IMG/VR virus record: IMGVR_UViG_3300047558_000137
Coordinates: 246,859-310,858 of that record
DNA length: 64,000 nucleotides
Origin: a virus
Strand: one strand, 5' to 3'
In this document: one piece after another, positions 2,682 to 53,296 of the stretch
How positions within the stretch are numbered: the first letter of the stretch is position 1
Layout: each line of letters opens with the position of its first letter
The notes under the pieces: generated by a model
Databases searched by the model: none
What the model was told of the DNA's origin: nothing
Seen by the model: the letters and a program-made list of their open reading frames with translations, nothing else
Program-made: the position numbers and the translations under genes

Positions 2682-3392
2682 TTAGCTAGTCAGGTAGTAT
2701 AGCTCTACTCGCTTAGTCCACTCGTCTGTCCAGTGATCAAATTCGTCACCTGAGACTTCAAATTCCAGGTATTTTGGCGTCTCAAGGGTACCATCTTCTA
2801 GGGTTTTGGGCTGTACAGCCATCAAAATTACACCGTCACGTATATTGGTACCATAAGTGTGATTATGTGCCTGTGCATAGGCAGCTAATTGTAAAAAGTA
2901 ATCAGTGATATATTCACGCTTCTTAATCTTGTTACTTTGCTTGAAGTCTAGGATAGCAGGACGACCTTTCCATACACCAATACAGTCTGTGGTGCCAGCA
3001 TATAACCCACTATAATATAATGGTACTTCACTGCCCCAGAATTCTGTCACGTGACTTAGTCCATGTAGAATAACTTCTGCTGCCATAAACCAACTTGGAT
3101 GTGCATAGGGATTAGGTGGCAAGGGTTTCATATCCTCTTGCAGGATATAATGCTCAAGGTAGGCGTGCATCCGTGTTCCACGGTTAGCTGCCTCTGTAGT
3201 AATCTGTTGTGCCTGTTGCTCGCCTACACGCTTTTTCCAATTGGCCAGGGCCTGCTTTGACTCTTCACTTTTAGTTCGATCTAAGATAGTTGTAACGCTG
3301 GGAACCTTGCTACCGTCAGGAGTCATGTAATGGCGCTTGCCATCTACTGTGGTTCTGTTTAAGGGGGTGTAATCGTATGGGCTTTTAATCAT
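2682..3392 (-). CDS. PD-(D/E)XK nuclease family protein
   Basis: TTDCIG...ILDFKQSNK looks like the D...(D/E)xK catalytic core; overall similar to RecB/YqaJ-like phage exonucleases. Confidence 0.45.
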   Translation of the reverse strand: MIKSPYDYTPLNRTTVDGKRHYMTPDGSKVPSVTTILDRTKSEESKQALANWKKRVGEQQAQQITTEAANRGTRMHAYLEHYILQEDMKPLPPNPYAHPSWFMAAEVILHGLSHVTEFWGSEVPLYYSGLYAGTTDCIGVWKGRPAILDFKQSNKIKKREYITDYFLQLAAYAQAHNHTYGTNIRDGVILMAVQPKTLEDGTLETPKYLEFEVSGDEFDHWTDEWTKRVELYYLTS

Positions 3393-4378
3393 GTTTCTCT
3401 TTGTGTGCTTGAGTATTCTTTAAATATTTCTACGTTCTGTGCTGCTATCTTGTACATACGGTCAATGATAGCATCTCTATCTTTATGCCTGTGTAACTCC
3501 ATTAAACTGGACAATGCGTTATATATTCGGCCAGTGGGCGACTTGGAGTAATCATATCGTTCATCAATAACATCATGGAATGTATGAAATCCACGTAGTC
3601 TAAGTTTTTCTAAACTGTGTTGCCCGGCTATTAATATAAAAGGTTTTCCTATTGCTAGGCAGCGCCCAGTCTTTTCAGTTAACCAATAATTACTAAACGC
3701 ATCGGTTTCGGATATAATTTCAATTTTGTAATTATTACATACATCAGCATAAGTTGCAACTGATTCCTGCCAGCTCATTGCACCAGATGGGCTACGACTG
3801 TGTATATCTTGATCAAACTGTTTTGTCTCTAGCCAGTCTAGTTCTTTTTTATATAATTCTTTAACCAATGCGTATTCAGAACGAATTTGTTCGAGCTGTG
3901 GCTGGAACACTGTATAGTTGTCATCGGGAAATGCTCGATCTAATTCGTATGCTAGTCTTAGTCGTGTGGGGTTTGATCTTCCTAACAGTGTACCAACAAA
4001 TTTCCCGTTGTTGCAGTTGTGACCTTTAAAATTTAAATGTTGACCTATGCCAAGAAATATTCCAGGCAACATGACTCTACTAGGGAAAGCTGTTATATCA
4101 GGATCGTGACTTTCAATTAACACCCGATCGTGTGGTATACTAAAGCATTGACAGATATATTCTACAAACTTTATAAAGCCAGTAAACTCTACATTCTCAC
4201 CATCCCAGAAGCTGACACGCAAACTTTGCCCTTTGTAGTTTTTTGCAATGGCATCAATTATTAACTCTTTACCTACTAAAGAGAAATCCTTACGAGCAAA
4301 CAAATGCCCTTGTATGTAAATTTCTTCGTCTGTTATTTCTATGGCTTTCATATTTGCCCCAGTAAATAATCTGCCCAC
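3389..4378 (-). CDS. hypothetical protein
   Basis: 329-aa ORF overlapping neighbours by 4 and 31 nt, operon-like packing. Confidence 0.5.
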   Translation of the reverse strand: MGRLFTGANMKAIEITDEEIYIQGHLFARKDFSLVGKELIIDAIAKNYKGQSLRVSFWDGENVEFTGFIKFVEYICQCFSIPHDRVLIESHDPDITAFPSRVMLPGIFLGIGQHLNFKGHNCNNGKFVGTLLGRSNPTRLRLAYELDRAFPDDNYTVFQPQLEQIRSEYALVKELYKKELDWLETKQFDQDIHSRSPSGAMSWQESVATYADVCNNYKIEIISETDAFSNYWLTEKTGRCLAIGKPFILIAGQHSLEKLRLRGFHTFHDVIDERYDYSKSPTGRIYNALSSLMELHRHKDRDAIIDRMYKIAAQNVEIFKEYSSTQRET

Positions 4379-5115
4379 ATTCGATGCCCTTGTTCGTTGG
4401 GGTGACGACTATCTTCTTTGTAGCAGTAGTCACAAGAGTCTAATAGATCCATACGTGTTTCTGCTCGAGACATAACGTCTAACACATCAGGAAAACGTGC
4501 ATCGTAATTCATCTGTTCTATGTGTTCGCTGATAACAATGTGTGTGCCATTCTGTATCCGTTCGCCTAGCATTACTTCTAACCAGCTCTGATTGCAGGGC
4601 ATAGTGCTAACACTGTCTGTAAAATTATGACCAATGATAAACTTAACTTCAGGATGCTTTAACATCAGCATGGTTATGCGACCGTATATCTCTGCTGTTA
4701 TTTTTTCTAATACCTGTTGTTGTGTACCTAGACTGCGATCAATAAGTCTCATGTCTTCATGACGACCTGATTCAGTGAGTGTAATAACACATCTCATTGG
4801 ATCTTTCATTTCACGATAATAATCTTGTAATGTCATAGTATCTAACAGCATTTCTACCCAAGATACAATTAACGAATTAGATCCACCGGGCATGGCTAGA
4901 TTAATCCAGTTTGCCTTTAGCTCTTGGGCCATTAGATTACCGTATACATGATCTAGTCTATATACTTTATCGTCTCTGCCCAGTCTTACTTTAGTATTGC
5001 CAAGACTATCGCCGTAGGTCCAACTGTCTCCTGCTGTAACCAGCAAAGACTCGCCATCATTCCAAACAAATTCGTAAGGGTTGTCTATCATTGACCACCC
5101 GGGCACTTTAAACAT
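4348..5115 (-). CDS. SGNH/GDSL-like hydrolase (putative esterase)
   Basis: N-terminal block VTAGDSWTYGDSLG resembles the GDSx block I of SGNH hydrolases. Confidence 0.4.
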   Translation of the reverse strand: MFKVPGWSMIDNPYEFVWNDGESLLVTAGDSWTYGDSLGNTKVRLGRDDKVYRLDHVYGNLMAQELKANWINLAMPGGSNSLIVSWVEMLLDTMTLQDYYREMKDPMRCVITLTESGRHEDMRLIDRSLGTQQQVLEKITAEIYGRITMLMLKHPEVKFIIGHNFTDSVSTMPCNQSWLEVMLGERIQNGTHIVISEHIEQMNYDARFPDVLDVMSRAETRMDLLDSCDYCYKEDSRHPNEQGHRMWADYLLGQI

Positions 5116-6124
5116 AATTGCGTAGATCTAAATTGTATAGACGTTGCCACTGATTGTAAACATACGTTCTAAACTGTGCTTTGTTTGCTTGGCAGCGCCC
5201 AAAGTACTTTTGATATTCTCTGTGTGGATTGTCTATGCGGTTAATTGCATCTATTGCAATCTGTGCATATTGCAGTTGTCTGCCGTGATCGCCTAGACTA
5301 GTATCTATTCGACTATAGTCAAAGACGTCCTCAAATATGTCAAAGCCATTATCCTTAAGATGTTGTCTTAATAAAGGCTGTCCATATACAAAGAATGGAC
5401 GCATACCTATAATAGGCTTAAATGTTTTTTCGCTAGTAAAAAAATTAGATTGATTAGGGTTGTCAAATTCTGTTTCAGTTACCAGGCACAACAAACTATT
5501 ACGCCAGATATCTAAATTGCCGACACTAAAAATGTCATTGAGAATTTTCCTACTAACAAAGGTTTCGTCTACACCTAGATTACCGTACTCATCCCGAATA
5601 CCTTGCTCGTCTGCAAATTCTTCTTCTAGTGTAATGGGATTACCAGGAAGCCCAAGACTAATATAACCTTGTTCGCGATAAGGTAGTAGCTGTTCTACTA
5701 GGGCACGTCTGTGCGGATGTGGTTTACGATTCAGACAGATAAACTTACGTGCGGTATCACGTAGTTCTACATCATGTTCTTCATAATTTTGAAAGTATAG
5801 ATCGCAGACCATAGCCCAAAAGTCTAATCTATACTGTCCGGCATTGCCTAAGATAAGGTATGGTACACCGGAGGTTTCAATTGCCTCAAATATCTTTGGT
5901 ACAGCCGGATCCACAAAGTTATGGCAGATGATAAAGTCTGGGTGTTTTTCTTGTATGTCTTTTTGAATGTCATTTTCATGTAACCATGTGGGGTTAATAA
6001 TCATAACCCTGTTGACATTAAGTTGTTCTCTTGCTTTGTTTTCTAATATTGAACGTATAAGTTGTTCAACCCGACCTGCCTTCCAAGCATAAGGAAAGCC
6101 GTTGGTATGTTTGATTATTTCCAT
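5108..6124 (-). CDS. hypothetical protein
   Basis: 338-aa ORF, no clear motif. Confidence 0.5.
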   Translation of the reverse strand: MEIIKHTNGFPYAWKAGRVEQLIRSILENKAREQLNVNRVMIINPTWLHENDIQKDIQEKHPDFIICHNFVDPAVPKIFEAIETSGVPYLILGNAGQYRLDFWAMVCDLYFQNYEEHDVELRDTARKFICLNRKPHPHRRALVEQLLPYREQGYISLGLPGNPITLEEEFADEQGIRDEYGNLGVDETFVSRKILNDIFSVGNLDIWRNSLLCLVTETEFDNPNQSNFFTSEKTFKPIIGMRPFFVYGQPLLRQHLKDNGFDIFEDVFDYSRIDTSLGDHGRQLQYAQIAIDAINRIDNPHREYQKYFGRCQANKAQFRTYVYNQWQRLYNLDLRNYV

Positions 6125-6492
6125 TAAACTCTAAAACTTTCTCCGCAACCACAACGGTCACGTTCATTGGGATTGCGAAATTCAAAACCTTCATTAAGAC
6201 CTTGTCTAACATAATCTATAGTCAGACCTTGTATATATGGACAGCTTTTTGGATCTACAAATATTTTACAGTCCATACAGTCTATTGCTTGATCTTCAGG
6301 GTGAGGTTTATCTACATATTCTAGCACATAAGCTAATCCTGAGCAACCTGTAGTTTTAACTCCCACCCTTATTCCAACGCCAGTGCCACGGCGTTCTAGA
6401 GTTTGTTTAATTTTTTTATTTGCTTGTTCAGTTAGAGAGATCATGTTTTTTGCGGTAGTCTTCAACTGCTGCCTTGATAGCATCTTCGGCAA
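6124..6492 (-). CDS. iscA: IscA/HesB-family iron-sulfur cluster insertion protein
   Basis: C-terminal CGCGESF motif plus TTGCSGLAY...FVDPKS...GFEF.NPN pattern are canonical HesB/IscA; true start may be the internal Met MISLTEQ. Confidence 0.85.
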   Translation of the reverse strand: MPKMLSRQQLKTTAKNMISLTEQANKKIKQTLERRGTGVGIRVGVKTTGCSGLAYVLEYVDKPHPEDQAIDCMDCKIFVDPKSCPYIQGLTIDYVRQGLNEGFEFRNPNERDRCGCGESFRV

Positions 6493-6814
6493 GAATACTG
6501 CAATGAATCTTAACTGGGGGAAGTGCTAGCTCTTCGGCTATTGCACTGTTTTTAATTGATTCGGCTTCTTGCAGAGTTTTACCTTTAACCCATTCAGTAA
6601 CCAAGCTACTACTCGCAATAGCAGACCCGCAACCATAAGTCTTAAAACGTGCGTCGGTGATAATCCCATTGTCTACCTTTATTTGTAGTTTCATAACGTC
6701 ACCACAGGCTGGTGCGCCTACCATACCTGTACCAACATCGGCGTCCTCTTTCGCAAAGGAACCCACATTACGTGGGTTCTCATAATGATCAACTACCTTG
6801 TCGCTGTATGCCAT
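6428..6814 (-). CDS. iscU: IscU/NifU-like Fe-S cluster assembly scaffold
   Basis: HYENPRNVGS, GAPACGD, TYGCGSAIASSS, LPPVKIHCSILAEDAIKAA: the three conserved Cys and LPPVK motif of IscU. Confidence 0.9.
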   Translation of the reverse strand: MAYSDKVVDHYENPRNVGSFAKEDADVGTGMVGAPACGDVMKLQIKVDNGIITDARFKTYGCGSAIASSSLVTEWVKGKTLQEAESIKNSAIAEELALPPVKIHCSILAEDAIKAAVEDYRKKHDLSN

Positions 6815-6844
6815 ATATACCCCTTAAAGGACACTATAGCAGAA

Positions 6845-7297
6845 TTAGTCACGCTTTGCAAGAGCCCTATTGGCCATTTGTGATACAGTCTTCATTGAAG
6901 CTTCTGGATCACCACCAGCATCACCGCCGGCGGCCATTGGATCAGCATCGACTACACTTGCTTCAGATGGTGTTAGGTATACATACTTCTCACCAGTCTT
7001 TTCATCGTCCTTGATGCTTTTAATCATTGCCTTGACTTTTTCATTGTCTTTAAAGGCTGCATCAAGTAGTGCATAGTTAAATGCTTCGTTACCGGGAATG
7101 GCCTGCACTCTGCTTACAACAGTACTGGCTCTTACACGAGGTGTAACTGCACTGCTAGATTCGGCTTCTTGACGTAATAATTCTAATGCTGTAATTAAAG
7201 ATGCATCGCCACGAGTGTGGGCTTCATCTTCGATGTCAGAACTAGGAAGGTCCATTCCTGGACCCAAGTTCTCGAGAATGATCTCGTTAATACGCAT
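6845..7297 (-). CDS. hypothetical acidic protein
   Basis: 150-aa ORF, acidic with Ala/Gly-rich tail. Confidence 0.45.
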   Translation of the reverse strand: MRINEIILENLGPGMDLPSSDIEDEAHTRGDASLITALELLRQEAESSSAVTPRVRASTVVSRVQAIPGNEAFNYALLDAAFKDNEKVKAMIKSIKDDEKTGEKYVYLTPSEASVVDADPMAAGGDAGGDPEASMKTVSQMANRALAKRD

Positions 7298-7298
7298 A

Positions 7299-7988
7299 TT
7301 AACGGCGCTCTCTTCCTAATTCTTCTTCACCGCCAACAGCAGCATCAGTTGCATCAAAGCCGTCTGTGTCAAAATCGCTCATTGGCTCTTCGCCTGGCAT
7401 GCCACCTAGTGCTGGATCCATACCTGCGTCAGGTGCGCCCATACCCATGTCCATTGCCATACCAACATCTTCACCTGCTAGTGCGCGAACTGCTGTGTCG
7501 CTAGATTCACGTGCTGTGCTTAGTGCTGTGTATAGTTCTGTTAGCATTGGGCTAATAGAGCCTTTAAATTGTTCTGCTTGCTCGCTACCAATTTGATCAC
7601 GGATAGTGTCAATTAGGGCAGGAACTTGTTCGTTTTGGATCTTAGAGATTTTTTCTAGCATGTCTTGAACGCTGTCAACAATGTCCTTGGCAGCTAGAAC
7701 AGCTTCGCTACGACCCATTTCGCTTTCAAATAGACCTTGCTCGCTAGTCATCCAACGGTCTAGACCTTCTTTAACTAGCATAAGTTCCATGTACTTGGCA
7801 TTCTTTTCAACGGTGTGAGCGCCAAAAGACTTTTTAATAGCAGCCATGTTTTCTGTTAATGCTTTGCTCAGGCGTTCTGCTTTAGCATAGCTTAGATTGT
7901 CATAGTCAATAGAAAAACCGAAACGGCTTTCCATTACTTTGTTAATCTTTTGCGGTGTTACCGCTGTGTGCATTTCTGATAATCTCAT
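7299..7988 (-). CDS. hypothetical protein with acidic low-complexity C-terminus (possible scaffold-like)
   Basis: 229-aa ORF; C-terminal GMDMGMGAPDAGMDPALGGMPGEEP low-complexity region. Confidence 0.45.
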   Translation of the reverse strand: MRLSEMHTAVTPQKINKVMESRFGFSIDYDNLSYAKAERLSKALTENMAAIKKSFGAHTVEKNAKYMELMLVKEGLDRWMTSEQGLFESEMGRSEAVLAAKDIVDSVQDMLEKISKIQNEQVPALIDTIRDQIGSEQAEQFKGSISPMLTELYTALSTARESSDTAVRALAGEDVGMAMDMGMGAPDAGMDPALGGMPGEEPMSDFDTDGFDATDAAVGGEEELGRERR

Positions 7989-14736: not shown

Positions 14737-15411
14737 CTAAGGTAGATCAAATAGTATTAGCTCAGATTCTGTGTTAACGGTAATGTTGATTTGTGATTCC
14801 TGTTCAAAGGCAAACCCGTCGCCTTCTGTAAAGTTGTGCCCATTTATAGTGCCAGTGCCAGTGACCACATAAGCATAATATTTGCGACTTTCATTAAGTG
14901 TGTAGTCAAATGGCCTAGTAAAGATACCAGCAAGTAATCTGGCATCGGCATTGATCGGCAGGCGTGCTGTTATGTTGCAGAATTGGTTTAACTTATCTGC
15001 TTTAGTAAACTGATACCAATCCCAACTTGGTGTGTAGTTTTTCTTTTCTGAACGTATCCATAGTTGTAGATAACGTATGGGTTGATCTGTAGCATTGCCT
15101 TCTGTGTGCTTTAGTCCAGATCCAGCACAGATGCGTTGTACTGCGCCAGCAGGTATATCAATTACACGACCCTGACCATCTGTGTGACGACATGCTCCGG
15201 ATACTACGTATCCAAATATTTCTCTATTGGTGTGAATATGCTGCGGAGTGTGAAAACCGGGCATAACCCGGTCATCATTTATTGTTTCAAGACTGCTGTA
15301 ATTCATGTAGCGCCAGTCACGGTATGTACCAAAGGTAAATGTACGGTAACTGGCTATACTATCAGGCAATTCAGCAAAGCCCCGTGTGTTAGCAGGGCGC
15401 TGCTGGATCAC
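14737..15411 (-). CDS. pirin-family cupin protein
   Basis: FHTPQHIHTNREIFGYVVSG...DGQG metal-binding cupin motif and bicupin length (224 aa) typical of pirins. Confidence 0.6.
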   Translation of the reverse strand: MIQQRPANTRGFAELPDSIASYRTFTFGTYRDWRYMNYSSLETINDDRVMPGFHTPQHIHTNREIFGYVVSGACRHTDGQGRVIDIPAGAVQRICAGSGLKHTEGNATDQPIRYLQLWIRSEKKNYTPSWDWYQFTKADKLNQFCNITARLPINADARLLAGIFTRPFDYTLNESRKYYAYVVTGTGTINGHNFTEGDGFAFEQESQINITVNTESELILFDLP

Positions 15412-31576: not shown

Positions 31577-32419
31577 TTATTTTCCTACATTAATGAAAGG
31601 CATAGCACCTGACATAACATTGGGCAAGTTACCATCCCACTTTTCAATTGCCTTCAATTGCACGTAAGCCGCGCCACCTTGGTTCTGAATAGCACTGGCT
31701 TGAATAGCAATAGCTTTAGCTTCACCTTCGGCCTGTGCAATACGGCTTTGTGCTTCAACTTTGATACGCTCTAAGTCCTGTTCAGCTTTTTGCTTTTGCT
31801 GAGTAGCAATAACTTTAGCTTCAATGGCCTTTTGGTATTCTGCTGAGAATCCAAAGTTCACTAAACTAATACCTTGCACATCAATGTCAAACGGAGCAAC
31901 CTTTGCACGAACATGGTTAAGGATTTCTGCACTAACTTGATCACGCTTGGTAATCAGTTCTTCACTGTTATAGTGAGCAGTTACAGCCTTGAACGCTTCG
32001 TTAACACCGGGGCCCAGAATCTTGTCATCCACATTAAGACCAAACTGGCTGTAGATAGTAGGAACCTTTTCGGGGCTCATACGATACTGAATAACAATAT
32101 CGGTATGCACAGACTGCAAGTCTTTGGTACCTGCTTGTGCTTCTTTCAAGTCCGCACGTTTAACTCGAATTTCAACATTTCGCACACTTGAAATTGGGTT
32201 AACAAAATTAACACCGGGTTGTAATGCAACAGGATTAACTGTACCCATTGTAACTTGAACACCCACGTGTCCTGGAGGCACAATAGTGAAACATTCAAAT
32301 ACAAAGGCAACTGCAAATACTACAGCACCTACCACAATGCCTAGTGTTCGTTGTGCAAACAAAAAGCCCCCAACGACTGCAACAATGGCAAGAAAAATAC
32401 CAAGAAAAATTCCAAACAT
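31577..32419 (-). CDS. SPFH/Band-7 (prohibitin/HflK-C-like) domain membrane protein
   Basis: N-terminal transmembrane segment; SPFH core (VQVTMGTVNP...VRNVEIRVKR...VHTDIVIQYR) and C-terminal A/E/Q-rich coiled coil typical of band-7 proteins. Confidence 0.8.
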   Translation of the reverse strand: MFGIFLGIFLAIVAVVGGFLFAQRTLGIVVGAVVFAVAFVFECFTIVPPGHVGVQVTMGTVNPVALQPGVNFVNPISSVRNVEIRVKRADLKEAQAGTKDLQSVHTDIVIQYRMSPEKVPTIYSQFGLNVDDKILGPGVNEAFKAVTAHYNSEELITKRDQVSAEILNHVRAKVAPFDIDVQGISLVNFGFSAEYQKAIEAKVIATQQKQKAEQDLERIKVEAQSRIAQAEGEAKAIAIQASAIQNQGGAAYVQLKAIEKWDGNLPNVMSGAMPFINVGK

Positions 32420-37551: not shown

Positions 37552-39469
<1,918 letters not shown>

Positions 39470-39554
39470 CATAAACTCCTTTAAAATAAAAATGTGATTA
39501 TATAATAGAAAATGCGAGTCTGTCAACAACACAACCCGCAAAATTATTTATACT

Positions 39555-40325: not shown

Positions 40326-40692
40326 AGCTCTTTTCTTCTACGATAGTGCTGCCGCAGAGACTGTTAATTTCACGTTTGATACGGGCACGTTCGTCGTTCA
40401 TTTGATATACTTGTCTTGCGGCACGAATAAATTCACTGCTAAAATCCTGCTCTTGTTCGCAGCGGCGTTTGAAATCTTCAATCATCCAGAGATCAGCATT
40501 GACATAGCCCAAGTCTTTCTTTAACTGTGTAATGTCCGGAAGATCTAACTTAGACAAGATAGTTTTTAATTCATCTAATTCGCGTTCTACGTTTTTTAAT
40601 TTTGCAGAGTCACGAATATTAACCATTTTGATCTCTAAGATTGTAATCTTATCAATTAATTCGCCAATGCTGATTGGTGCTAGTACTATCAT
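40312..40692 (-). CDS. hypothetical coiled-coil protein
   Basis: 126-aa ORF. Confidence 0.4.
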   Translation of the reverse strand: MIVLAPISIGELIDKITILEIKMVNIRDSAKLKNVERELDELKTILSKLDLPDITQLKKDLGYVNADLWMIEDFKRRCEQEQDFSSEFIRAARQVYQMNDERARIKREINSLCGSTIVEEKSYANV

Positions 40693-41585
40693 AGTTGTTT
40701 TAATATAGCCGCTGCTATATCCTTTGAGTTAAAATTGCTTGAGCAAGGTGTGTTGCCCTTGCTACATACTAACTGTCTCACTGGACGAGCCTGTACGTCA
40801 TTGCACCCGCGACAATCTTCTAGTGTCTGTACCACTGTGGTATTGTATCCCAGCTGGTTGTTACGATAAGGCAAGATTACTTCGGGTCGCAGATGTGTTA
40901 GCAGTGCAACTATGTGCGTCGAACTGGCACTTGCAGCCCAATAAGGACCTGAATCAATGCCAACAAATGCTTTTGCACCGTCACATAGGACCTTTAACTG
41001 TTGATCATTGAACTTAGTACGTGCATCAACAAATAGTGGATGGTCTTCGATAAACAGGTCTGTTTCGCCGCCCACTGTTACAATCTTAAAGTCTGTGCGA
41101 GTTTCAAACAGTTGTGCAAAAACTTCAAACCAAATGTCGGCATTAATGTTTTTTGCAGTCCAATGCCAGTTACGCATATGAATAACAATATAACTATCTA
41201 GTTCATTCTGGTAAGCAAAGTTCAATACCTTAGTGGAATCTTCTTCTGTGGGGAATAATTCTGTTGATTGATCTAGACCTAGTTGCCCAAATGCACGATA
41301 GAAGTAGTTGTCTACATAGTGTTCTGTTGGATTAAGTTCATATGCATCGTCGAGATTAATATAAACATCATATCTATTGTTTACTGCTGGTATTTGGTCT
41401 ACAGGAAAGACGTTACGTATGTGCGGATTATTTCTATAAATGCCCGCAAAGTCTGTGGCAACGTCAATATTGGCATTGCTACCATAACGTGCCTTTAGTT
41501 CTCTAACTACCCCAGTGGTCATTACTACATCGCCAATTGCAGCACGGCGTTGTAATAGTATGTTAATTGACTTTTCTAATTTCAT
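40689..41585 (-). CDS. glycosyltransferase family 9-like (heptosyltransferase-like)
   Basis: FVGIDSGPYWAASASSTHIVALL matches GT9 GxDSGPxHLAAA motif; N-terminal ILLQRRAAIGDVVMTT matches the GT9 LxxxRxGDxVxxxP start. Confidence 0.6.
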   Translation of the reverse strand: MKLEKSINILLQRRAAIGDVVMTTGVVRELKARYGSNANIDVATDFAGIYRNNPHIRNVFPVDQIPAVNNRYDVYINLDDAYELNPTEHYVDNYFYRAFGQLGLDQSTELFPTEEDSTKVLNFAYQNELDSYIVIHMRNWHWTAKNINADIWFEVFAQLFETRTDFKIVTVGGETDLFIEDHPLFVDARTKFNDQQLKVLCDGAKAFVGIDSGPYWAASASSTHIVALLTHLRPEVILPYRNNQLGYNTTVVQTLEDCRGCNDVQARPVRQLVCSKGNTPCSSNFNSKDIAAAILKQL

Positions 41586-42790
41586 CGTTCTATTCTAATA
41601 TTAGGGAAGTAGGTCATGAAACGATCATTTAGATTATTTCTTGTTTTAAGTATCTTAGATTTAATTTCACGATAGAAATTCCATGCCAATGGTATAAACA
41701 ATACCTGTTCATCTTCTGCAAGACGTTCAAGATAGTTAATACTTACAACAGGAATGTCTGCGCCCGGGCATAAAGTTCCTTGTTTTAAAGGATTATCGTC
41801 TACAACTGCATCTAACTCAATACCACTTGCATTAATTACAGTCATGCCCTTAGCTGCCGCACCATATCCCACAATCTTATACCCTTGTGATCTATAGTCT
41901 GCTACCGTATCACGTAGATCCCCAATAAGAGTTGCAACATCCGATGCCCAACCTCTATAGGTATTGGGATCAGTTAATCCTGCAGCCGCTTCCATTGCTA
42001 GAATGTTTTCAACTCTTTGTGTATTCTTAGGCCGTCTAGCTAGAATAAAGATATAACTGGTGCCATGTATGGGTGTTTTAACTACATCAATTAAGTGTAG
42101 ACCTGCACGTTCTGCTAATGCCTGCATACTTGTGGCGTTGTAGAAACTAATGTGTTCGTGATAGATAGTATCAAACTCACTATTGACAACCATATCGGCT
42201 TGACTTGTGCTGATAAAAATCATTCCGGTATTGGTCATACGCTGTCTAGCGGCCAATAACCAATTTAAGGGATTTGGATTGTGTGCAAAACTGTTCTGTG
42301 CGGTAATAACATCAAACTGTGTATCAAAGCCTTGATCAGTTGGCCAGAAGTCGCATATAACTTGATGTCCTTTTGCTACTGTGTCTGCGTGTAGATTCTT
42401 TGCAGGATCCACACCATATGTTTTAAACCCTAAACGTTTAAATGCATCAAGTTGACTACCATCATTGCAGCCAATATCTAGTACTGTAGTGGGCCAATGA
42501 TCGAACTGTTCACGTACAAAACGTGCATACCAATCCATGTATTCAACATAAGTCCGACTTGTGCCACTAACATAGAGATAGTGGGTATAGATTAGTGCAG
42601 GATCTACTGCGTGTGTTAGCTGTAGATGATTGCAATCGTTGCAACGGTTAATGGCCAACGGATAACGTGGCTCAACTGCTGTGGTAGACCTGAAGTTATT
42701 GGCCAATGGCTGCTCACCTAGATCTAATGTAGGTGTTAAATCTGTGCTGCCACAGGCCACACAACTGGTAATAGGATCGCAATTATTCAT
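41582..42790 (-). CDS. SAM-dependent C-methyltransferase, TylCIII/NDP-hexose 3-C-methyltransferase-like, with N-terminal Zn ribbon
   Basis: N-terminal CVACGS...CNDCNH zinc-binding domain, class I SAM motif VLDIGCNDGSQL, length 402 aa as in sugar C-methyltransferases. Confidence 0.6.
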   Translation of the reverse strand: MNNCDPITSCVACGSTDLTPTLDLGEQPLANNFRSTTAVEPRYPLAINRCNDCNHLQLTHAVDPALIYTHYLYVSGTSRTYVEYMDWYARFVREQFDHWPTTVLDIGCNDGSQLDAFKRLGFKTYGVDPAKNLHADTVAKGHQVICDFWPTDQGFDTQFDVITAQNSFAHNPNPLNWLLAARQRMTNTGMIFISTSQADMVVNSEFDTIYHEHISFYNATSMQALAERAGLHLIDVVKTPIHGTSYIFILARRPKNTQRVENILAMEAAAGLTDPNTYRGWASDVATLIGDLRDTVADYRSQGYKIVGYGAAAKGMTVINASGIELDAVVDDNPLKQGTLCPGADIPVVSINYLERLAEDEQVLFIPLAWNFYREIKSKILKTRNNLNDRFMTYFPNIRIER

Positions 42791-43506
42791 TAGTTCTTAA
42801 TCTGTACGCCGTTTGGTGCAATATGTCCTTCGACCCCAAGCAAAGGTTCGTTGTGTACGTGTTCTTGTGGTAAGAATTTATACAATACATGTTCAATGTC
42901 TACATACCCGCCATTAGCAAGGCGTTCAGCAAAGAAGTTAAAGCTATCTAGGTAAACTTGTATAACTTCATCGGTCATTGTAGTAGGCCAAGACCATAGA
43001 CGTGCCATGTATTGCAACGGTACTTGTGTAACTTCAGGCGGGAATTGACTAGGTTGTGCAGGGCCAATAACAATCTTATCTTTAATATCATCACGTTCGT
43101 AAAGATCTAATTTAAAATCATCATTGAGCAGATATCTTCCTGATACTTTGTGTACACGGTCAAATCCATTTAACATGTTTTCTTGTTGTAAGATACCAAG
43201 TACGCGACTAAAGCACATGATCTCTGTACCGTTCTTAACTACGTCCCAGTTGTCATTGTCGTATAGAGCTTGTACATCTTCATCTGTACTGCAATCAATG
43301 AACACATGGCATACTTCTTTAAGTTGATTGGCTTGTAAATCCTTAATAGGTGTGCCGCAGACTTCCATAACAACAATCAACGCATCGGGCACACGTTGTT
43401 TAATTGTGGCGATAGTGTTTAGTGTTTGGTCTAAACGCTCACGTGGACTGTATACTCCAAATTTACTGTTAATTGCGCTGGTTACGATAAATGCATGTTT
43501 AGTCAT
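42790..43506 (-). CDS. hypothetical protein in sugar island
   Basis: 238-aa ORF coupled to flanking sugar genes. Confidence 0.45.
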   Translation of the reverse strand: MTKHAFIVTSAINSKFGVYSPRERLDQTLNTIATIKQRVPDALIVVMEVCGTPIKDLQANQLKEVCHVFIDCSTDEDVQALYDNDNWDVVKNGTEIMCFSRVLGILQQENMLNGFDRVHKVSGRYLLNDDFKLDLYERDDIKDKIVIGPAQPSQFPPEVTQVPLQYMARLWSWPTTMTDEVIQVYLDSFNFFAERLANGGYVDIEHVLYKFLPQEHVHNEPLLGVEGHIAPNGVQIKN

Positions 43507-43519
43507 AATATATTCTACT

Positions 43520-44704
43520 TTAATAATCTCTGTTAGTCAATTCAATTTTAACTCGTTTACGATACGTGGCCAATGCACTACCAATAACTTGGTGCATGTC
43601 GTAGTACATGTATTCGCCTAAGCGGCCGCCGAAGATCACGTTGGGCTCTTTTTCTGTTAAACTACGGTATTGTGCAAACATTTCCATATCCTCTGGTGTC
43701 TTAACAGGATAATAAGGAACGTCATCTTGTGTTGCAGTGCGGCTAAACTCTCTACCAATTACCGTTTTTCCATCAGCTACACGACGTTCAGGATGAAAGT
43801 GTCGATGTTCTACTTCACGTGTCCACTTTACATCCGTGTCGGGATAATTTAATACAGCGACACCCTGGTAGTCGTTGGTATTTTCTGTACGGTATTCAAA
43901 ATCTAGTGTGCGCCAATTTAGTTGGCCATAGCAATAATCATAGAAAGCATCAATTGGGCCAGTGTAGACCACCAACTTTTCACGTGCCAGATGTTTTACA
44001 TCTTCCCAACAAGTGTTTAAGTGTACTGTAACGTTGTCATGTGCCAACATCTTTTCAAATATTGGTGTGTAACCGTCAACTGGTATGCCTTGATATCTAT
44101 TGTTGTTAGGATAGTAGTCTGTTCGGTAGTCTGTATAAACAGGTAAACGTTTAGCAACACTAGCAGGTAGTTCTTTAGGATCAGTTTCCCACTGCTTTTG
44201 TGTGTATCCCTGCACAAACGCATGATACAATTTAGAACCTAGCAAACTTAGTGCTTGCTCTTCAAAGTTCTTAGGATCATCATAGTGTACTTTTTGTTCT
44301 TCTAACCAACGAGCTGCGTCTGCAGGGTTAAACTCATTACCAGTAAACTTGTTTATTGTATCCAAGTTAATAGGCATGGGGTAAACTACACCTTGATGAC
44401 TTGTTTTGCAGATATGTCGGTAGTTGTTAAACTCAGTAAATTGATTTACATAGTCCCAGATTTCTTTATTATCTGTATGAAATATATGAGAACCATAACG
44501 ATGTACATTTATACCAGTCTCCGGATCAAACTCAGTATAACAGTTGCCACCAATATGATTGCGACTATCAATCACAGCAACCTGAAAGCCATCTCGGCTA
44601 GCCTGTTCAGCAACTACGCTACCAAAGAAGCCGGCACCAACTACAACTAAATCAACGTTTTTAAACATTACTTGCTTAACCAGCGTGTGTTTTCTAGGGT
44701 CCAC
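43520..44704 (-). CDS. glf: UDP-galactopyranose mutase
   Basis: N-terminal FAD fold VVGAGFFGSVVAEQ, then NHIGGNCYTE...YGSHIFHTDNKEIWDYVN...QGYTQKQW...YQGIPVDGYT...IFGGRLGEYMYYDMHQVIGSAL, colinear with E. coli Glf. Confidence 0.9.
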   Translation of the reverse strand: MDPRKHTLVKQVMFKNVDLVVVGAGFFGSVVAEQASRDGFQVAVIDSRNHIGGNCYTEFDPETGINVHRYGSHIFHTDNKEIWDYVNQFTEFNNYRHICKTSHQGVVYPMPINLDTINKFTGNEFNPADAARWLEEQKVHYDDPKNFEEQALSLLGSKLYHAFVQGYTQKQWETDPKELPASVAKRLPVYTDYRTDYYPNNNRYQGIPVDGYTPIFEKMLAHDNVTVHLNTCWEDVKHLAREKLVVYTGPIDAFYDYCYGQLNWRTLDFEYRTENTNDYQGVAVLNYPDTDVKWTREVEHRHFHPERRVADGKTVIGREFSRTATQDDVPYYPVKTPEDMEMFAQYRSLTEKEPNVIFGGRLGEYMYYDMHQVIGSALATYRKRVKIELTNRDY

Positions 44705-45708
44705 TTAGTCATTTCAGCAATGCGTTCGCTAAGTTTAATACGTGGTTCCCAACCTAGATCTTTAAGTAGGCCACCGTCTAGTGCGTAACGCAGGTCATGT
44801 CCCGGACGACTACTATGAAAATCTACCATTTCGTAGTTTAACTCTCGACCTTGCGCTTCCGCAATCCACTTAGCAAGTGTTAGATTATCAACCTCTTCTG
44901 TGCCTACTAGGTTGAACTTAGGGCAGTGTGCGTGTCCGTAATCGCCTGTGTGTTTATAGTCCTTAGGCAAGTTTTGCAAAATAAACATTAGACCTTCAGC
45001 TACATCCCTTGCATGTATGTACATTCGTGTACCAGCTTCTGTTTTCTCTGGGTTAGAGTGAATAAAAACTTTCTCACCATCACGGGCACGTTGGATGCAC
45101 ATAGGAATAAACTTCTCGGGATGCTGACGTTCGCCAAACACGTTCATAGTGTGTGTAACTACAATAGGCATCTTATAAGTGTTTTCGTACGCCACACAAA
45201 ATTCTTCGGCTGCTGCCTTGCTCGCGCTATACGGGTTGGTGCTGTTGTACCGATCATACTCTTTATAAGATACCCCGGGTGGAGCAACCCCAAAAATTTC
45301 GTCTGTTGAAAAGTAAACGAAACGTTCGAGGTTAGGTAAATTTTTTCTAGCATAATCTAACATGTTAACAGTACCAACGGTATTGTCTAACACAAACTCC
45401 ATAGGGTAAGTAATTGAACGATCTACATGCGATGATGCAGCTAGATGCAAAACAATGTCTACTGGACCAATATCTTTAACGATCATTTCGTTTAGTTCTG
45501 CCTTGATATCATGGAATATGATACGCATACGCTTGGCTATTACTGCAGGGTCATGTTCCTTTAACATGTCGTGTAATCGATTTAGATTACCACTAATGTC
45601 AAGTCTATCAAGACTAACGATATTCCAGTCTGTACTAAGTAGGATTTTATCTATAACGTGGTGGGCAATAAAACCTGCGCCACCAGTTATCAAAACTGTT
45701 TTGCTCAT
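44668..45708 (-). CDS. NDP-sugar 4,6-dehydratase (RmlB-like) / NAD-dependent epimerase-dehydratase family
   Basis: Rossmann TGGAGFIAHHV, catalytic YSASKAAAE (YxxxK), PEKFIPMCIQRARDGEKVFI matches RmlB PEKLIP...GKPLPIYG block. Confidence 0.75.
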   Translation of the reverse strand: MSKTVLITGGAGFIAHHVIDKILLSTDWNIVSLDRLDISGNLNRLHDMLKEHDPAVIAKRMRIIFHDIKAELNEMIVKDIGPVDIVLHLAASSHVDRSITYPMEFVLDNTVGTVNMLDYARKNLPNLERFVYFSTDEIFGVAPPGVSYKEYDRYNSTNPYSASKAAAEEFCVAYENTYKMPIVVTHTMNVFGERQHPEKFIPMCIQRARDGEKVFIHSNPEKTEAGTRMYIHARDVAEGLMFILQNLPKDYKHTGDYGHAHCPKFNLVGTEEVDNLTLAKWIAEAQGRELNYEMVDFHSSRPGHDLRYALDGGLLKDLGWEPRIKLSERIAEMTKWTLENTRWLSK

Positions 45709-45734
45709 TGAAACTCCGAGATTATTGAATAATA

Positions 45735-46586
45735 CTATTTATTATACGGGTATGGCGGTAAGAAATCAATTATCTTCTCACCAGAATTGGCCAATATAAA
45801 GTCTGTGTACTGCCGACAGCTGGCAGGAAAGTAGTTGTCTAGGTCAACTATCTTATATGTAGCATCAGCTGAACGATTCCATTCTTTGCCTTCGGCAATA
45901 CTTTTATCTAAATCAATCTGTGCCAGGAACTCAGGTGTATTGACTTCTGTGTGACTAAAACTCTGTGCTTTATCACGTAGGTAGTCGTTGTCGCCCATGT
46001 AACCAAAATGCCATCCAGCATGTTCAATGACTTCGCAACCTTGGTTCTTGTGTTGATATTCGGCACCAAAGAAGTTAAAACGGAAATTACGCAATTGGTT
46101 AGGTGTTATTTCTTTAAACACACTGCCCCTGCCGGCCATTGCCCAAACATCATAACGTGCTGGCTCAAAGCGCATATAGTTAAATTTAAAGTTGCTTAAT
46201 GTCATACGCATGGCAAAGATTATTTGATCTGATTGGCGTATGTATTCAACTGCTGCCGGACGAGGTATTTCATCAACATCAGATACGATCATAATGTCAT
46301 CATCTTCTGCATCAGTTAGGCAATGCAATATTGCATTACGTTGTGCTTCTTCGTTTACCCATGGATTTGGGTCTCCGGGTAAGTTGACAGGCAAATACCT
46401 AATCTTATCTGCATAAGGTTTAAATCTATCATAATGTTGTGGAAATAACGGAGTGCGAGCACGATTGGTAAATGTACTAGTGCCTTCAACAATGACAAAC
46501 ACATCCACTGTGTTGTATAATTCTTTAAGGCGTATTTCTAATAGATCGAGTTCATTGTAAAATGTAAAGCAGTCAAATATACGCAT
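45735..46586 (-). CDS. glycosyltransferase family 17-like (beta-1,4-N-acetylglucosaminyltransferase-like)
   Basis: N-terminus MRIFDCFTFYNELDLLEIRLKELYNTVDVFVIVEG matches the conserved GT17 start IxDCFxFxNELDxLExRL. Confidence 0.55.
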   Translation of the reverse strand: MRIFDCFTFYNELDLLEIRLKELYNTVDVFVIVEGTSTFTNRARTPLFPQHYDRFKPYADKIRYLPVNLPGDPNPWVNEEAQRNAILHCLTDAEDDDIMIVSDVDEIPRPAAVEYIRQSDQIIFAMRMTLSNFKFNYMRFEPARYDVWAMAGRGSVFKEITPNQLRNFRFNFFGAEYQHKNQGCEVIEHAGWHFGYMGDNDYLRDKAQSFSHTEVNTPEFLAQIDLDKSIAEGKEWNRSADATYKIVDLDNYFPASCRQYTDFILANSGEKIIDFLPPYPYNK

Positions 46587-46593
46587 ATAAATA
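46586..46593 (+). promoter_or_regulatory. T4-late-promoter-like TATAAATA box
   Basis: Exact TATAAATA 30 nt upstream of the ATG of the plus-strand methyltransferase gene. Confidence 0.45.
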
Positions 46594-46623
46594 TTTATTA
46601 ATCAATATATTGTAACAAAAACA

Positions 46624-47208
46624 ATGCAACAATTCAATACTCTAGATGGTATCCAGGTTGATGAGGCACACGTGGCCTTAATCAATGGTATCGTCAAAAG
46701 CCAAAAACCTCAACGCATACTAGAATTAGGTTTAGGATCTGGTACTACTACTGATGCAATACTAGAAGCCCTACAGTTTAATCAGCAACCGTTTGAGTTT
46801 ACTCTAGTAGACTTATGGTTAGAACGTGCCTGGGGCGGTGACCCGGATACTATGCGATCGGGCACATGCCCTCCTGAAGCTGTAGAAAAGTACAGCCAAT
46901 ATATCAACATTGTTACCAGTGACGAACGCGAGTATGTATTCAATTGTGGCAAAACATTTGATTTTATCATGAGTGATGCTGATCACCATAATACACAAAA
47001 ATGGTTTGAATACGTCTACGCAGAAGTACTAGAAGCCGGCGGCACGTTAATCTATCATGACGTAACTGACCGTAGCTTTACAAACCTAAGAGAGATATAC
47101 GAAAAATGTAAACTGTTTAATTTACGCTTTACATTGTTCAACAAGAATAGCCGCAGTGACGAACGTTGTGACCGTGGCCTGTTAGTAATCTATAAACCCG
47201 AAGAATAA
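46624..47208 (+). CDS. class I SAM-dependent methyltransferase (O-methyltransferase-like)
   Basis: RILELGLGSGTTTD motif I; 194 aa. Confidence 0.6.
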   Translation: MQQFNTLDGIQVDEAHVALINGIVKSQKPQRILELGLGSGTTTDAILEALQFNQQPFEFTLVDLWLERAWGGDPDTMRSGTCPPEAVEKYSQYINIVTSDEREYVFNCGKTFDFIMSDADHHNTQKWFEYVYAEVLEAGGTLIYHDVTDRSFTNLREIYEKCKLFNLRFTLFNKNSRSDERCDRGLLVIYKPEE

Positions 47209-47217
47209 GGAATCAAT

Positions 47218-47913
47218 ATGTACGCTGTAGTAAGCATGAGCACCCATAGTATCGCCGACCTGGCAGATCAAACAGATGGACTAAAGAAGGAATACTGTGA
47301 CCATAATGGTTATGAATTCTTTGCTATCAAAGACGAAGACTTTAAAGTATTTACTAAACCATATAGTAGCTTTATGGACTGGAACAAGGCGTTCTACGTA
47401 AACGATTTGCTAAAGTCACGCCCAGACATCGAATGGGTATTGATTAGCGAAGCAGATGCTACTATCACTAACATGACTACACGCATGGAAGATAAAGTTG
47501 ATAACAATTATCACGTTATTATTCCAGTAGACGTAAACAACTTAAACGGCGGTAACTGGTTACTTCGTAATAGCGAAGAAGGTCGTGCTTACATTCAAAT
47601 GATGGTTGATGTTGTTGAGGACTACAGAGAAGATCAAAGTCCTGATGGTAAACTAAAAGACAAATGGGGACTACAACAGGTAATGATTGATACTATTGGT
47701 CAATACGAAGCGATTGTTAAGATTGTTCCACAAAAGCACATGAACAGCTACGAACCAGAAATCTATGACTACTTAGATGTTCGCACAGACATCCTAGGAA
47801 CATCTGGCGTATGGGAAAAGGGCGATTGGATTATTCACTGGCCCGGTATTAGGCACAATGTTCGACTTGATAGAGTTAAACGATTAGAAGACGAACAAAT
47901 GATTGTTCGATAG
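47218..47913 (+). CDS. hypothetical protein (possible nucleotide-sugar transferase)
   Basis: 231-aa ORF with good AAGGA Shine-Dalgarno; co-transcribed with methyltransferase. Confidence 0.45.
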   Translation: MYAVVSMSTHSIADLADQTDGLKKEYCDHNGYEFFAIKDEDFKVFTKPYSSFMDWNKAFYVNDLLKSRPDIEWVLISEADATITNMTTRMEDKVDNNYHVIIPVDVNNLNGGNWLLRNSEEGRAYIQMMVDVVEDYREDQSPDGKLKDKWGLQQVMIDTIGQYEAIVKIVPQKHMNSYEPEIYDYLDVRTDILGTSGVWEKGDWIIHWPGIRHNVRLDRVKRLEDEQMIVR

Positions 47914-49028: not shown

Positions 49029-49985
49029 TTATGCTTTTAAAATCCCATTAATTAAACCAGGGGAAAATACATCTTCGTACTTAGTGTACAAAGGCTCAAC
49101 TATATCTCTCATTTTTGCAATTTCGGAATCGCTAAATTTGTAATAGCTAACCCCCAACTCATCATGGCGAGCTTGGTTAACTGCGTAGTCCTCTGCTTCT
49201 GCAACACTTTCTTCGCGTTCACGAACCGCAGCAACACGGGCAGCTTGTCTTACAAATTCTTGATCTTCAGAATCTAAACTATTCCAGAAATCTTTAGAAA
49301 TTAAGATGCTTGTTAAGTACATGCTATGTTTAGTATCAACAATGTGCTTTTGAACAGCGGTATTAGCTTCGTATTCGTAACGTGGTAATGTAGTTTCTAC
49401 TGTGTAACCATTCTTTTGTAATACTTCGCTCTTGGCATCATAGTTACGTGCGCTGATAGCAAGTGGTTCGCATCCAAAAATCTTAGCTGTATCTACCATT
49501 ACTGGGTTTGGTGCAGTAACTAGTTTAATTCCCTTTAAGTCCTCAAAGGAATTAATCTTTTTATCTGACGCTAGGCATCTATACCCGCCACTATATGTAA
49601 ATGCTAGACCATGAACAGGAGTGTTTTTTTGTAGACTATCTAATAGTCCTCGACCAATTTCTCCGTCTAGAACACGAGTTGCATGATCGTGGTCTTTAAA
49701 CAAATATGGCATTTCTAATGCAAAAAAGTCCGGTGCATTCCATACACCAATAAGGTTAGTTTGCATCTGGCTCATTTCTACGTCATTATTTTGTATCAAT
49801 GACAATGGCTCGTGTTTTACGCCATTTTTAAATTTATCTGAATATTCTTCAAGTGTGTACACTTCCACATTGATTCTGTCTCCGGTTAAGCGGGCAATTT
49901 CTTGAGAAAATGCTTTAGCAGTACGGACAAACAAGTGGATAGGTTCGTGATATAATACCCAACGTATTGTGTGATTCTTTTTCAT
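49029..49985 (-). CDS. TRAP-transporter DctP-like solute-binding protein homolog (no signal peptide)
   Basis: VHGLAFTYSGGYRCLASDKKINSFEDLKGIKLVTAPNPVMVDTAKIFGCEPLAIS colinear with DctP GLAFWDNGFK...LKMRIQSS...ALGA.P region; N-terminus lacks secretion signal. Confidence 0.6.
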   Translation of the reverse strand: MKKNHTIRWVLYHEPIHLFVRTAKAFSQEIARLTGDRINVEVYTLEEYSDKFKNGVKHEPLSLIQNNDVEMSQMQTNLIGVWNAPDFFALEMPYLFKDHDHATRVLDGEIGRGLLDSLQKNTPVHGLAFTYSGGYRCLASDKKINSFEDLKGIKLVTAPNPVMVDTAKIFGCEPLAISARNYDAKSEVLQKNGYTVETTLPRYEYEANTAVQKHIVDTKHSMYLTSILISKDFWNSLDSEDQEFVRQAARVAAVREREESVAEAEDYAVNQARHDELGVSYYKFSDSEIAKMRDIVEPLYTKYEDVFSPGLINGILKA

Positions 49986-50025: not shown

Positions 50026-50463
50026 TTATATTTTAATTAGATATTCGTAATTAACAGAAGACTCGTTTTCGCGCATAATTATTGCCCCATTTTTTAAATG
50101 GAATCTGCGGGCCATTTCAGTTTTGGGACTTAGAGTAACAAATCTAGTAATAGTTGGGTAGCGGTTGCGTATTTCGTTGACTGTTTCTCTGAGTAGCTCT
50201 ACCCCTGCGCCCGGGGCATAACTCCATATAGTGTAAAAGATTGCTGTAGTTGGTTGCTCAGCATCGCGAGAAAGATCATCAACATCTGCTGGTACAAAGT
50301 CATGCAGACTAACACAAACGATTGCTCTAGGTTTTTCATCGACTAACGCACTAATAAACCTTTTACCTTGTACACGAAACTCTGCAGGAATTTCAGGGCG
50401 AACGGGGTCGTCCTTTATGTAGGAAAGTATTGGGCTTTGTGGGTCAGTGATAATCGATAGCAT
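50026..50463 (-). CDS. hypothetical protein (possible GNAT-fold)
   Basis: 145-aa ORF; weak acetyltransferase-like YTIWSYAPGAGVELL. Confidence 0.3.
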   Translation of the reverse strand: MLSIITDPQSPILSYIKDDPVRPEIPAEFRVQGKRFISALVDEKPRAIVCVSLHDFVPADVDDLSRDAEQPTTAIFYTIWSYAPGAGVELLRETVNEIRNRYPTITRFVTLSPKTEMARRFHLKNGAIIMRENESSVNYEYLIKI

Positions 50464-51822: not shown

Positions 51823-51896
51823 TGGAGCGGGATAGCGGAATCGAACCGCTGACTTGAACTTGGAAGGATCTCGTTTTACCATTAAACTAATCCCGC
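51823..51896 (-). tRNA. tRNA, probably Gly(TCC); anticodon stem imperfect
   Basis: Cloverleaf with T-arm AGCGG-TTCGATT-CCGCT, acceptor GCGGGAT/ATCCCGC, encoded CCA; loop CTTCCAA but only 3/5 stem pairs. Confidence 0.6.
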
Positions 51897-51903
51897 ATAA
51901 ACT

Positions 51904-51978
51904 TGGTACCTTGTGACAGTTTCGAACTGCCGACCCTCTCGGTGTAAACGAGACGCTCTACCCCTGAGCTAACAAGGC
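51904..51978 (-). tRNA. tRNA-Val(TAC)
   Basis: GCCTTGT-TA-GCTCAGGGGTAGAGC-G-TCTCG-TTTACAC-CGAGA...TTCGAAA; CCA encoded. Confidence 0.8.
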
Positions 51979-52081
51979 AACTATTTTTTGTACTCTTGCA
52001 AGTACTGATTTCTTTTTGAAATCTTTTTATATCTACTTCCTTTGCCTTTACTACCAAAGTTTTCTGTTTGACTATGGCAAA

Positions 52082-52157
<76 letters not shown>

Positions 52158-52161
52158 CATA

Positions 52162-52238
52162 TTGGTTGCAGAGGCTGGATTCGAACCAGCGGCCTCCAGG
52201 TTATGAGCCTAGCGGGATGACCAACTTCCCTACCCTGC
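52162..52238 (-). tRNA. tRNA-Met(CAT), initiator-like (C1 opposite A72)
   Basis: CGCAGGG...CTAGG-CTCATAA-CCTGG...GCTGGTTCGAATCCAGC-CTCTGCA-A-CCA; unpaired 1:72 is the bacterial initiator hallmark. Confidence 0.75.
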
Positions 52239-52246
52239 GTCAATAT

Positions 52247-52882: not shown

Positions 52883-53108
52883 AATACATTAGCGGTTAGA
52901 CATTTTTAGGCGCCTAAATTACTAAAGCAAAATACAAGAGACAGAGGATACCAATATTCGTGAGTGTCAACAAACAAGGCAATTACGCCGGGGTCTCACA
53001 TCACTGGATCACGATTGTTAATGCAATATTTCCGTTCAAGGGAATATTACGGTGCAATCTCTCATCTCCATACACATCACCGTCCTGTTTTAATAAACAG
53101 GCAAAATC

Positions 53109-53291: not shown

Positions 53292-53296
53292 AAACT

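Follow-up and report, generated by a model that had tools for sequence, protein, structure and literature searches.

IscU is the scaffold protein of the iron-sulfur cluster (ISC) assembly pathway, and A-type carriers deliver [4Fe-4S] clusters. Genes of both kinds have been described in viruses: marine viromes, along with complete environmental genomes of T4-like viruses, were reported to contain iscU and A-type carrier genes (Nishimura et al. 2017, PMC5332604), iscU/erpA has been reported in HMO-2011-type phage genomes (PMC9038755), and in viruses of Lake Baikal an iron-sulfur (Fe-S) assembly gene has been linked to a viral ferredoxin (PMC7678222). A supply-and-demand idea for such genes was also published in 2017, linking them to radical S-adenosylmethionine (radical-SAM), Cas4, Grx, and PaaD genes (PMC5332604). 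Here, we analyzed an iscU-iscA gene pair at positions 6124-6814 of a 64,000-nucleotide stretch of viral DNA (positions 246,859 to 310,858 of IMG/VR record IMGVR_UViG_3300047558_000137), hereafter the window, which covers 64 of the ~374 kb of a 374,314-bp jumbo phage contig (JGI). We found that the pair is not a recent capture and has long been resident in phages under purifying selection. Our preferred reading, to which we assign a probability of roughly 0.7, is that iscU-iscA is an auxiliary metabolic module, long resident in an uncultivated jumbo phage lineage, that feeds clusters to phage and host enzymes. Phage-borne IscU and A-type carriers are already known and the idea has in essence been published (PMC5332604); the locus is no new kind of biology. 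It adds a large, probably freshwater jumbo phage lineage to the viruses that have their own scaffold and carrier, and its fixed overlapping module, extreme purifying selection, and repeated radical-SAM insertion place the published supply-and-demand hypothesis on a firmer footing.

Like the viruses described in PMC5332604 and PMC9038755, this phage has a scaffold and/or carrier only, of proteobacterial-type sequence and with no chaperones, and, as in the PMC5332604 viruses, genes for radical-SAM and other Fe-S client proteins are found in the same genomes. Unlike the PMC5332604 viruses, the pair sits in a ~374-kb jumbo phage and its nearest bacterial homologues are from Burkholderiales, whereas those of the marine viral genomes are from SAR86/Gammaproteobacteria. 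The two genes form a fixed overlapping module across many contigs, in contrast to the scattered single genes of the earlier study, and some relatives hold radical-SAM genes inside the module. Among GenBank phage records, a close IscU was found only in Phage C48C1 (Kyanoviridae, OQ984149.1), and the pair was found in none. The NifU-like gene of Phage C48C1 encodes a protein with 74.6% identity to the window IscU and lies in a replication-gene neighbourhood; this phage differs in having no IscA, in belonging to another family, in its 156-kb genome, and in sharing no common synteny. Since the pair is present in IMG/VR contigs and in no GenBank phage, it is common in uncultivated phages and absent from cultured ones. 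Two records named 'Acinetobacter phage MD-2021a' (CAKLQH020000011.1 and CAKLQF020000009.1) were set aside as bacterial assemblies, as they hold a full iscRSUA-hscBA-fdx operon with ppiD, hupB, and mfd on its flanks. Most matches in Staphylococcus, Listeria, and Salmonella 'phage' records were SufU-type proteins or tiny unannotated fragments and were likewise unused as phage evidence.

The preliminary description of the window had assigned the pair to an IscU scaffold and an IscA carrier, and both identities hold. Two overlapping minus-strand genes occupy 6124-6814 exactly. The first, iscU (6428-6814), encodes a 128-aa protein that scores 222.4 bits against the NCBIfam model TIGR01999 (iscU), above its curated cut-off of 192.4, and 180.8 bits against Pfam PF01592 (NifU_N; E 1.4e-53, cut-off 22). 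An AAGGGG Shine-Dalgarno-like motif lies ~7 nt ahead of its ATG. The second, iscA (6124-6444), encodes a 106-aa carrier that matches PF01521 (Fe-S_biosyn) with 70.8 bits (E 1.3e-19, cut-off 26.3) and the A-type subfamily TIGR00049 with 116.7 bits (cut-off 58.8). Its top specific model is TIGR02011 (IscA), at 140.6 bits, 10 bits under the equivalog cut-off of 150.6; comparison with the SufA (114.4 bits) and ErpA (69.6 bits) models places it in type II (IscA/SufA), not type I. The iscA ATG, at 6444, falls within the last codons of iscU, giving an overlap of 17 nt (6428-6444). A 122-aa open reading frame (ORF) with a TTG start was rejected as a mere upstream extension, because the 106-aa form was called independently on two further contigs carrying identical proteins. 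A scan for promoters and terminators around iscU-iscA yielded chance-level hits only. With these overlapping genes, iscU-iscA forms a compact module, probably with translational coupling. IscU is 81.6% and IscA 51.4% identical to the E. coli counterpart; with its 82% match to E. coli, IscU offers an easy experimental handle.

To place the pair among its relatives, we compared it with viral and bacterial loci. At least 598 IMG/VR contigs encode an IscU relative, and our viral set consisted of the best 80 of these, with proteins 82-90% identical to the window IscU. The 80 nearest bacterial loci were nearly all from Burkholderiales (Malikia, Limnohabitans, Polaromonas, Rhodoferax, Polynucleobacter, and others; 81-88% identity). 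IscA lies beside IscU in 71 of the 80 viral loci. The two genes overlap in 60 of these 71, as against 2 of 79 bacterial loci, and the overlap is exactly 17 nt, as in the window, in 37 of the 71 and 29 nt in 13. A frequent viral gene order is DUF6267, then a 229-aa protein, then iscU-iscA and a PDDEXK exonuclease; a homologue of the exonuclease adjoins iscA in 39 of the 80 loci, and in the relatives iscA is mostly followed by the exonuclease directly. Other genes also occur between iscU and iscA, and the junction looks like a hot spot for insertion: one locus (L029, 6377-7671) holds a peptide deformylase and an APS-kinase-like/cytidylyltransferase-like protein there, and two others a GNAT acetyltransferase (L018, 6371-6943; L012, 1404-1979).

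Sequence divergence within the viral set indicates long residence. Against its viral relatives, the window IscU has a median amino acid identity of 87%, while third codon positions are 42% identical. The ratio of nonsynonymous to synonymous substitution (dN/dS) is ~0.04 for iscU, where computable, and ~0.2 for iscA, with synonymous sites saturated and the IscU protein preserved. In neighbour-joining trees, 70 of 71 viral IscA proteins fall in one clade; viral IscU proteins are split mainly between two clades (39 and 24 members), in a tree that is poorly resolved because the protein is too conserved. GC content at third codon positions is 0.36 for iscU and 0.18 for iscA, compared with a phage mean of 0.34 and with 0.76 for the nearest bacterial iscU. 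These data bear on whether the pair could have come into a phage contig from host DNA through mis-assembly, or be a recent and functionless capture. Such an origin would fit an IscU that is 83-88% identical to Burkholderiales IscU, and several GenBank 'phage' records with iscU-iscA are indeed bacterial assemblies. However, identical proteins in the same arrangement occur on three independent contigs, and phage synteny is found in dozens of IMG/VR contigs. Together, the single IscA clade, the low dN/dS, the phage-like composition with saturated synonymous sites, and the conserved, phage-specific overlap exclude an artefact or recent passenger, an explanation that we regard as effectively refuted.

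Ligand positions were then aligned to the solved E. coli IscU and IscA structures. Phage IscU residues C37, D39, C62, H104, and C105 correspond to E. coli C37, D39, C63, H105, and C106, the E. coli numbering running one higher after a one-residue deletion, and each of these columns is conserved to 90% or more in a consensus built from 81 viral sequences. The HscA-recognised motif LPPVK is present at residues 98-102 and is kept in the viral consensus. In phage IscA, C34, C98, and C100 correspond to E. coli C35, C99, and C101 and are invariant in all 71 viral homologues. The preliminary description had claimed that both proteins retain every ligand cysteine and had named their loss beforehand as the observation that would speak against it; the alignment to the E. 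coli proteins showed no such loss. A sole position, IscU residue 53, separates viral from bacterial proteins, being Thr in 72 of 81 viral and Glu in 77 of 81 bacterial sequences (E53T); the E. coli protein reads GIIEDARF around this position. Such near-identity to Burkholderiales IscU fits a protein that docks with host partners. The window IscA also carries three extra cysteines (C56, C59, and C68; CMDC ... SC) that are not in E. coli IscA and that may form a subgroup-specific second metal or redox site. They also occur in L018 (CVDCNGC...KSC), and they were rejected as a conserved second site, since they were found in only 6-11 of the 71 viral relatives.

The phage pair was further compared with the bacterial iscRSUA-hscBA-fdx operon (E. 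coli, Acinetobacter, Burkholderiales). In both, iscU is followed by iscA, and all ligands and LPPVK are present; phage IscA is 51% identical to the E. coli operon IscA and up to 64% identical to those of Burkholderiales. Among the 80 bacterial loci, iscS and iscA were each found in 79, hscA in 75, and iscR, hscB, and fdx in 66-73, so that, as far as contig ends permit, the operon is essentially complete in the nearest bacterial loci. In contrast, the phage locus has phage neighbours and no iscR, iscS, hscB, hscA, or fdx in the window, its codon composition is AT-rich, and its two genes overlap by 17 nt where the bacterial operon genes are separated. Expression of the phage pair cannot follow the IscR-controlled promoter of the isc operon. 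A Pfam scan that took in every window ORF of at least 300 aa and nearly all smaller ones revealed no class-V aminotransferase, Hsp70/J-protein, or ferredoxin, and tblastn of Acinetobacter IscR, IscS, HscB, HscA, and Fdx against the window returned nothing. A cysteine desulfurase, for which the preliminary description had suggested a search elsewhere in the genome, was thus not found within the 64-kb window. With a related phage IscS as query, clusters at ≥87% identity had no member on a 374,314-bp contig, which is weak evidence of absence. None of the 80 viral loci has hscBA, fdx, or iscR beside the pair, and the sole desulfurase-like match among them was a weak one (25%) in L076, later recognised as SufS-like. 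Because iscS, hscBA, fdx, and iscR are missing from the window, the pair must use host enzymes.

These features suggest how the module could work. The phage would make its own IscU scaffold and IscA-type carrier from the overlapping genes. Host IscS would give sulfur, and host ferredoxin electrons, to phage IscU, on whose C37/C62/C105 first [2Fe-2S] and then [4Fe-4S] clusters would be built. Hand-on of the clusters would be aided by host HscA/HscB through the retained LPPVK motif, and phage IscA would take [4Fe-4S] clusters to apo-proteins. Scaffold and carrier capacity would in this way be raised outside host IscR control, phage [4Fe-4S] enzymes, radical-SAM enzymes above all, would be matured, and host Fe-S enzymes would be kept working during infection. 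All of the biochemistry proposed here, like the gain for the phage, is inferred. Fe-S proteins come at a high cost and are fragile, and a phage with many radical-SAM or other Fe-S enzymes needs to have them matured in a dying cell.

Which clients the module would serve is suggested by the genes around it. The preliminary description had proposed a supply-and-demand link on the grounds that a radical-SAM gene co-occurs in the window. The candidate client, at 58534-59706 (minus strand) inside a tRNA array, encodes a 390-aa protein with CNLDCDYC at residues 29-36, 15 cysteines, and a SPASM/twitch-like Cys-rich C-terminus. It matches phrog_13987 (radical SAM) with E 3.8e-9, PF04055 with 24.1 bits (E 4.4e-5), under the gathering score of 29.5, and the twitch radical-SAM model NF033640 with E 1.7e-7, far under its cut-off. 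A link between this gene and the pair is at most conjectural, and co-occurrence in the window, with 52 kb between them, is weak support. The relatives lend the idea better support. A radical-SAM gene lies at or next to the module in 10 of 80 viral loci (a raw count): between iscU and iscA in five (L018, L027, L033, L078, and L074, one with a B12-binding domain), directly upstream of iscU in L023, L039, L047, and L061, and just downstream, after the exonuclease, in L081. The radical-SAM gene inside the L033 module spans 6182-7087. Three or four radical-SAM families are represented in these three positions, all on the same strand, and none of the module-linked proteins matches a named NCBIfam enzyme. 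These data point to a repeated, independent association of radical-SAM genes with the module, and the insertions in relatives, beyond the window's own gene, are the best evidence that supports supply and demand.

A related explanation is that the pair serves host rather than phage Fe-S enzymes, such as respiratory complexes, aconitase, and IspG/H, and would sustain energy and precursors after host transcription shut-off or under iron limitation or oxidative stress. This follows the usual logic of auxiliary metabolic genes. An IscU that is nearly indistinguishable from that of Burkholderiales, apart from E53T, should serve host partners and clients, and in 70 of the 80 related loci the pair has no phage radical-SAM gene as a neighbour. 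However, support for host enzymes is compatible with a module that feeds both phage and host rather than exclusive of it, and the repeated insertion of radical-SAM genes into the module speaks for the importance of phage clients. We consider service to host enzymes alone unlikely.

A more distant alternative is that cluster supply is secondary and that phage IscU acts on sulfur flux. By occupying host IscS, it would outcompete TusA and ThiI, cut the 2-thiolation of uridine 34 in tRNAs (s2U34), and shift decoding or frameshifting. In E. coli, competition between IscU and TusA for IscS alters thiolation of tRNA-Lys(UUU), programmed frameshifting, and lambda replication (PMC3296357). The phage itself carries the s2U34 substrates tRNA-Lys(UUU), tRNA-Glu(UUC), and tRNA-Gln(UUG), no gene of the module is more conserved than iscU, and IscU occurs without IscA in 9 of the 80 loci, some of them on truncated contigs. 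In a more specific form, phage IscU would chiefly regulate how host IscS partitions sulfur, lowering s2U34 in Lys, Glu, and Gln tRNAs to favour phage genes, with IscA as a sink that keeps IscU cycling; the drop may include the phage's own Lys, Glu, and Gln tRNA copies or contrast with them. In a milder variant, the module may be a maturation cassette for one phage radical-SAM enzyme inserted in some relatives. Yet pure competition would need neither the D39, C62, and H104 ligands nor the LPPVK motif for HscA, and it would have no need of a co-conserved, translationally coupled IscA with invariant ligands. In the lambda work, moreover, extra IscU protected the host and did not help the phage (PMC3296357), and the radical-SAM linkage points to cluster delivery. 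We regard a role chiefly in sulfur partitioning, in this form or more generally, as improbable.

Several observations weigh against a module that supplies clusters to phage and host enzymes. The function of the phage proteins is a prediction from sequence. The candidate radical-SAM gene of the window is ~52 kb from the pair and belongs to a family other than those linked to the module in relatives, and the 10 of 80 adjacency loci are not phylogenetically independent and form a raw count. The absence of iscS, like the client repertoire, covers 64 of ~374 kb. Moreover, some viral loci do encode a sulfur source. A scan of viral loci with Limnohabitans IscS found only 10, a number that depends on the peptide patterns used and can be set against the IscU count only loosely; several of the 10 are phage-like, with low GC and the syntenic exonuclease or iscU-iscA nearby. 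In low-GC contigs related to the window's phage group, an IscS-type desulfurase lies beside iscU-iscA in L172 (2724-6197) and near the syntenic exonuclease in L167, L168, and L170 (~5000-6200). In L076 (IMGVR_UViG_3300008108_003817), a SufD-like gene (SUFBD_core, E 6.5e-27) and a SufS-like class-V aminotransferase gene (E 9.2e-76), together at 4053-5997, lie directly upstream of iscU-iscA, making a mixed SUF/ISC set; this locus shares no synteny with, and is unrelated to, the window's phage group. Fuller phage-borne sets therefore exist, and the proposed module would require scaffold and carrier, and not the desulfurase, to be limiting. The phage IscS proteins share 65-66% identity with Acinetobacter IscS and 82-84% with the Polynucleobacter protein, and the affinity of those in L172, L167, L168, and L170 hints at Polynucleobacter-like hosts. 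For the lineage as a whole, we infer a freshwater, Burkholderiales-infecting phage.

The wider gene content of the window agrees with the phage origin assumed in the preliminary description. It encodes a collagen-like tail fibre (1512 aa), tail-spike-like proteins, a DNA primase, a DnaB-type helicase, a UvsW-like helicase, and 27 tRNAs, and nearly all of its genes share one strand. The nearest cultured relatives by DnaB are PA5oct, Atu_ph07, and XaC1; the window DnaB is 49% identical to the protein of PA5oct, a Pseudomonas jumbo phage, and 46% identical to that of Atu_ph07, which infects Agrobacterium. When positions 5500-7500 were compared with GenBank phages by megablast, nothing matched, which indicates a phage without a close sequenced relative.

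The preliminary description had also put the pair next to ribonucleotide reductase, and this did not hold: NrdA lies six genes, ~5.3 kb, downstream of iscA. By its translation, the minus-strand gene at 1-781 encodes the N-terminal part of NrdA, runs off the window, and is no part of the Fe-S module. The same nrdA on contig L083 encodes 767 aa with ATP-cone, Ribonuc_red_lgN, and Ribonuc_red_lgC domains and is followed by NrdB (PF00268). Class I NrdA/NrdB uses a di-iron-tyrosyl cofactor. Since the reductase is of class I with this cofactor, it is not an Fe-S client. Between nrdA and the pair, a predicted PD-(D/E)XK exonuclease (2682-3392, minus strand; PDDEXK_1, E 3.9e-4) served as a synteny marker; it was rejected as a Cas4-type 4Fe-4S client nuclease, having a single cysteine only. 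Three minus-strand genes at 3389-6124 lie between iscA and the exonuclease, encoding proteins of 338 aa, 255 aa (GDSL-like), and 320/329 aa. No Fe-S signature was found in the three. Searches of Pfam, NCBIfam, and PHROGs gave no match for the 338-aa and 329-aa proteins and, for the 255-aa protein, only weak GDSL-lipase hits in Pfam that stayed under the cut-off.

Some of these neighbours have relatives elsewhere. The genes at 5108-6124, 3389-4378, and 63161-63994 encode paralogues of ~280-340 aa without a family match, the relationship within the 338-/329-aa pair being weak. They share a C-terminal '(S/T)EK(T) ... GF..F..(V/F)(I/F)D..YD' pattern and look glycosyltransferase-like by eye only, and a homologue sits between iscU and iscA in L039 (6371-7399). 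The GDSL-like proteins form a second paralogue pair (4348-5115 and 61973-62623) with 21% identity.

At the far end of the window, the 27 tRNA genes form a dense minus-strand array (51823-63191) that serves most amino acids; among them are those for Lys(UUU), Glu(UUC), and Gln(UUG), together with two tRNA-Arg(TCT) genes. Small ORFs lie among the tRNAs, three of them exactly 128 aa long (59901-60287, 60828-61214, and 62725-63111), the first being an HNH endonuclease with 10 cysteines. An RF-1 domain protein was also detected by Pfam among the small window ORFs. GroEL (37552-39171; Cpn60, E 1.6e-76) is encoded directly downstream of GroES (39182-39472; Cpn10, E 2.8e-34). A sugar-modification cluster at 40689-47913 comprises a GT9 heptosyltransferase-like protein, a C-methyltransferase (Methyltransf_13/14), an NAD-dependent epimerase/dehydratase, a GT17-like glycosyltransferase, a UDP-galactopyranose mutase (E 1.5e-74), and, on the opposite strand, a GT34-like glycosyltransferase. 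Other unusual cargo includes a pirin-like bicupin (14737-15411), an SPFH/Band 7 protein (31577-32419), a fragment-sized malonyl-CoA decarboxylase-like protein (50026-50463), and a dual-specificity phosphatase-like protein (56455-57078). Finally, the gene at 49029-49985 encodes a DctP-type TRAP-transporter solute-binding protein (PF03480, E 1.6e-40), an unusual auxiliary gene.

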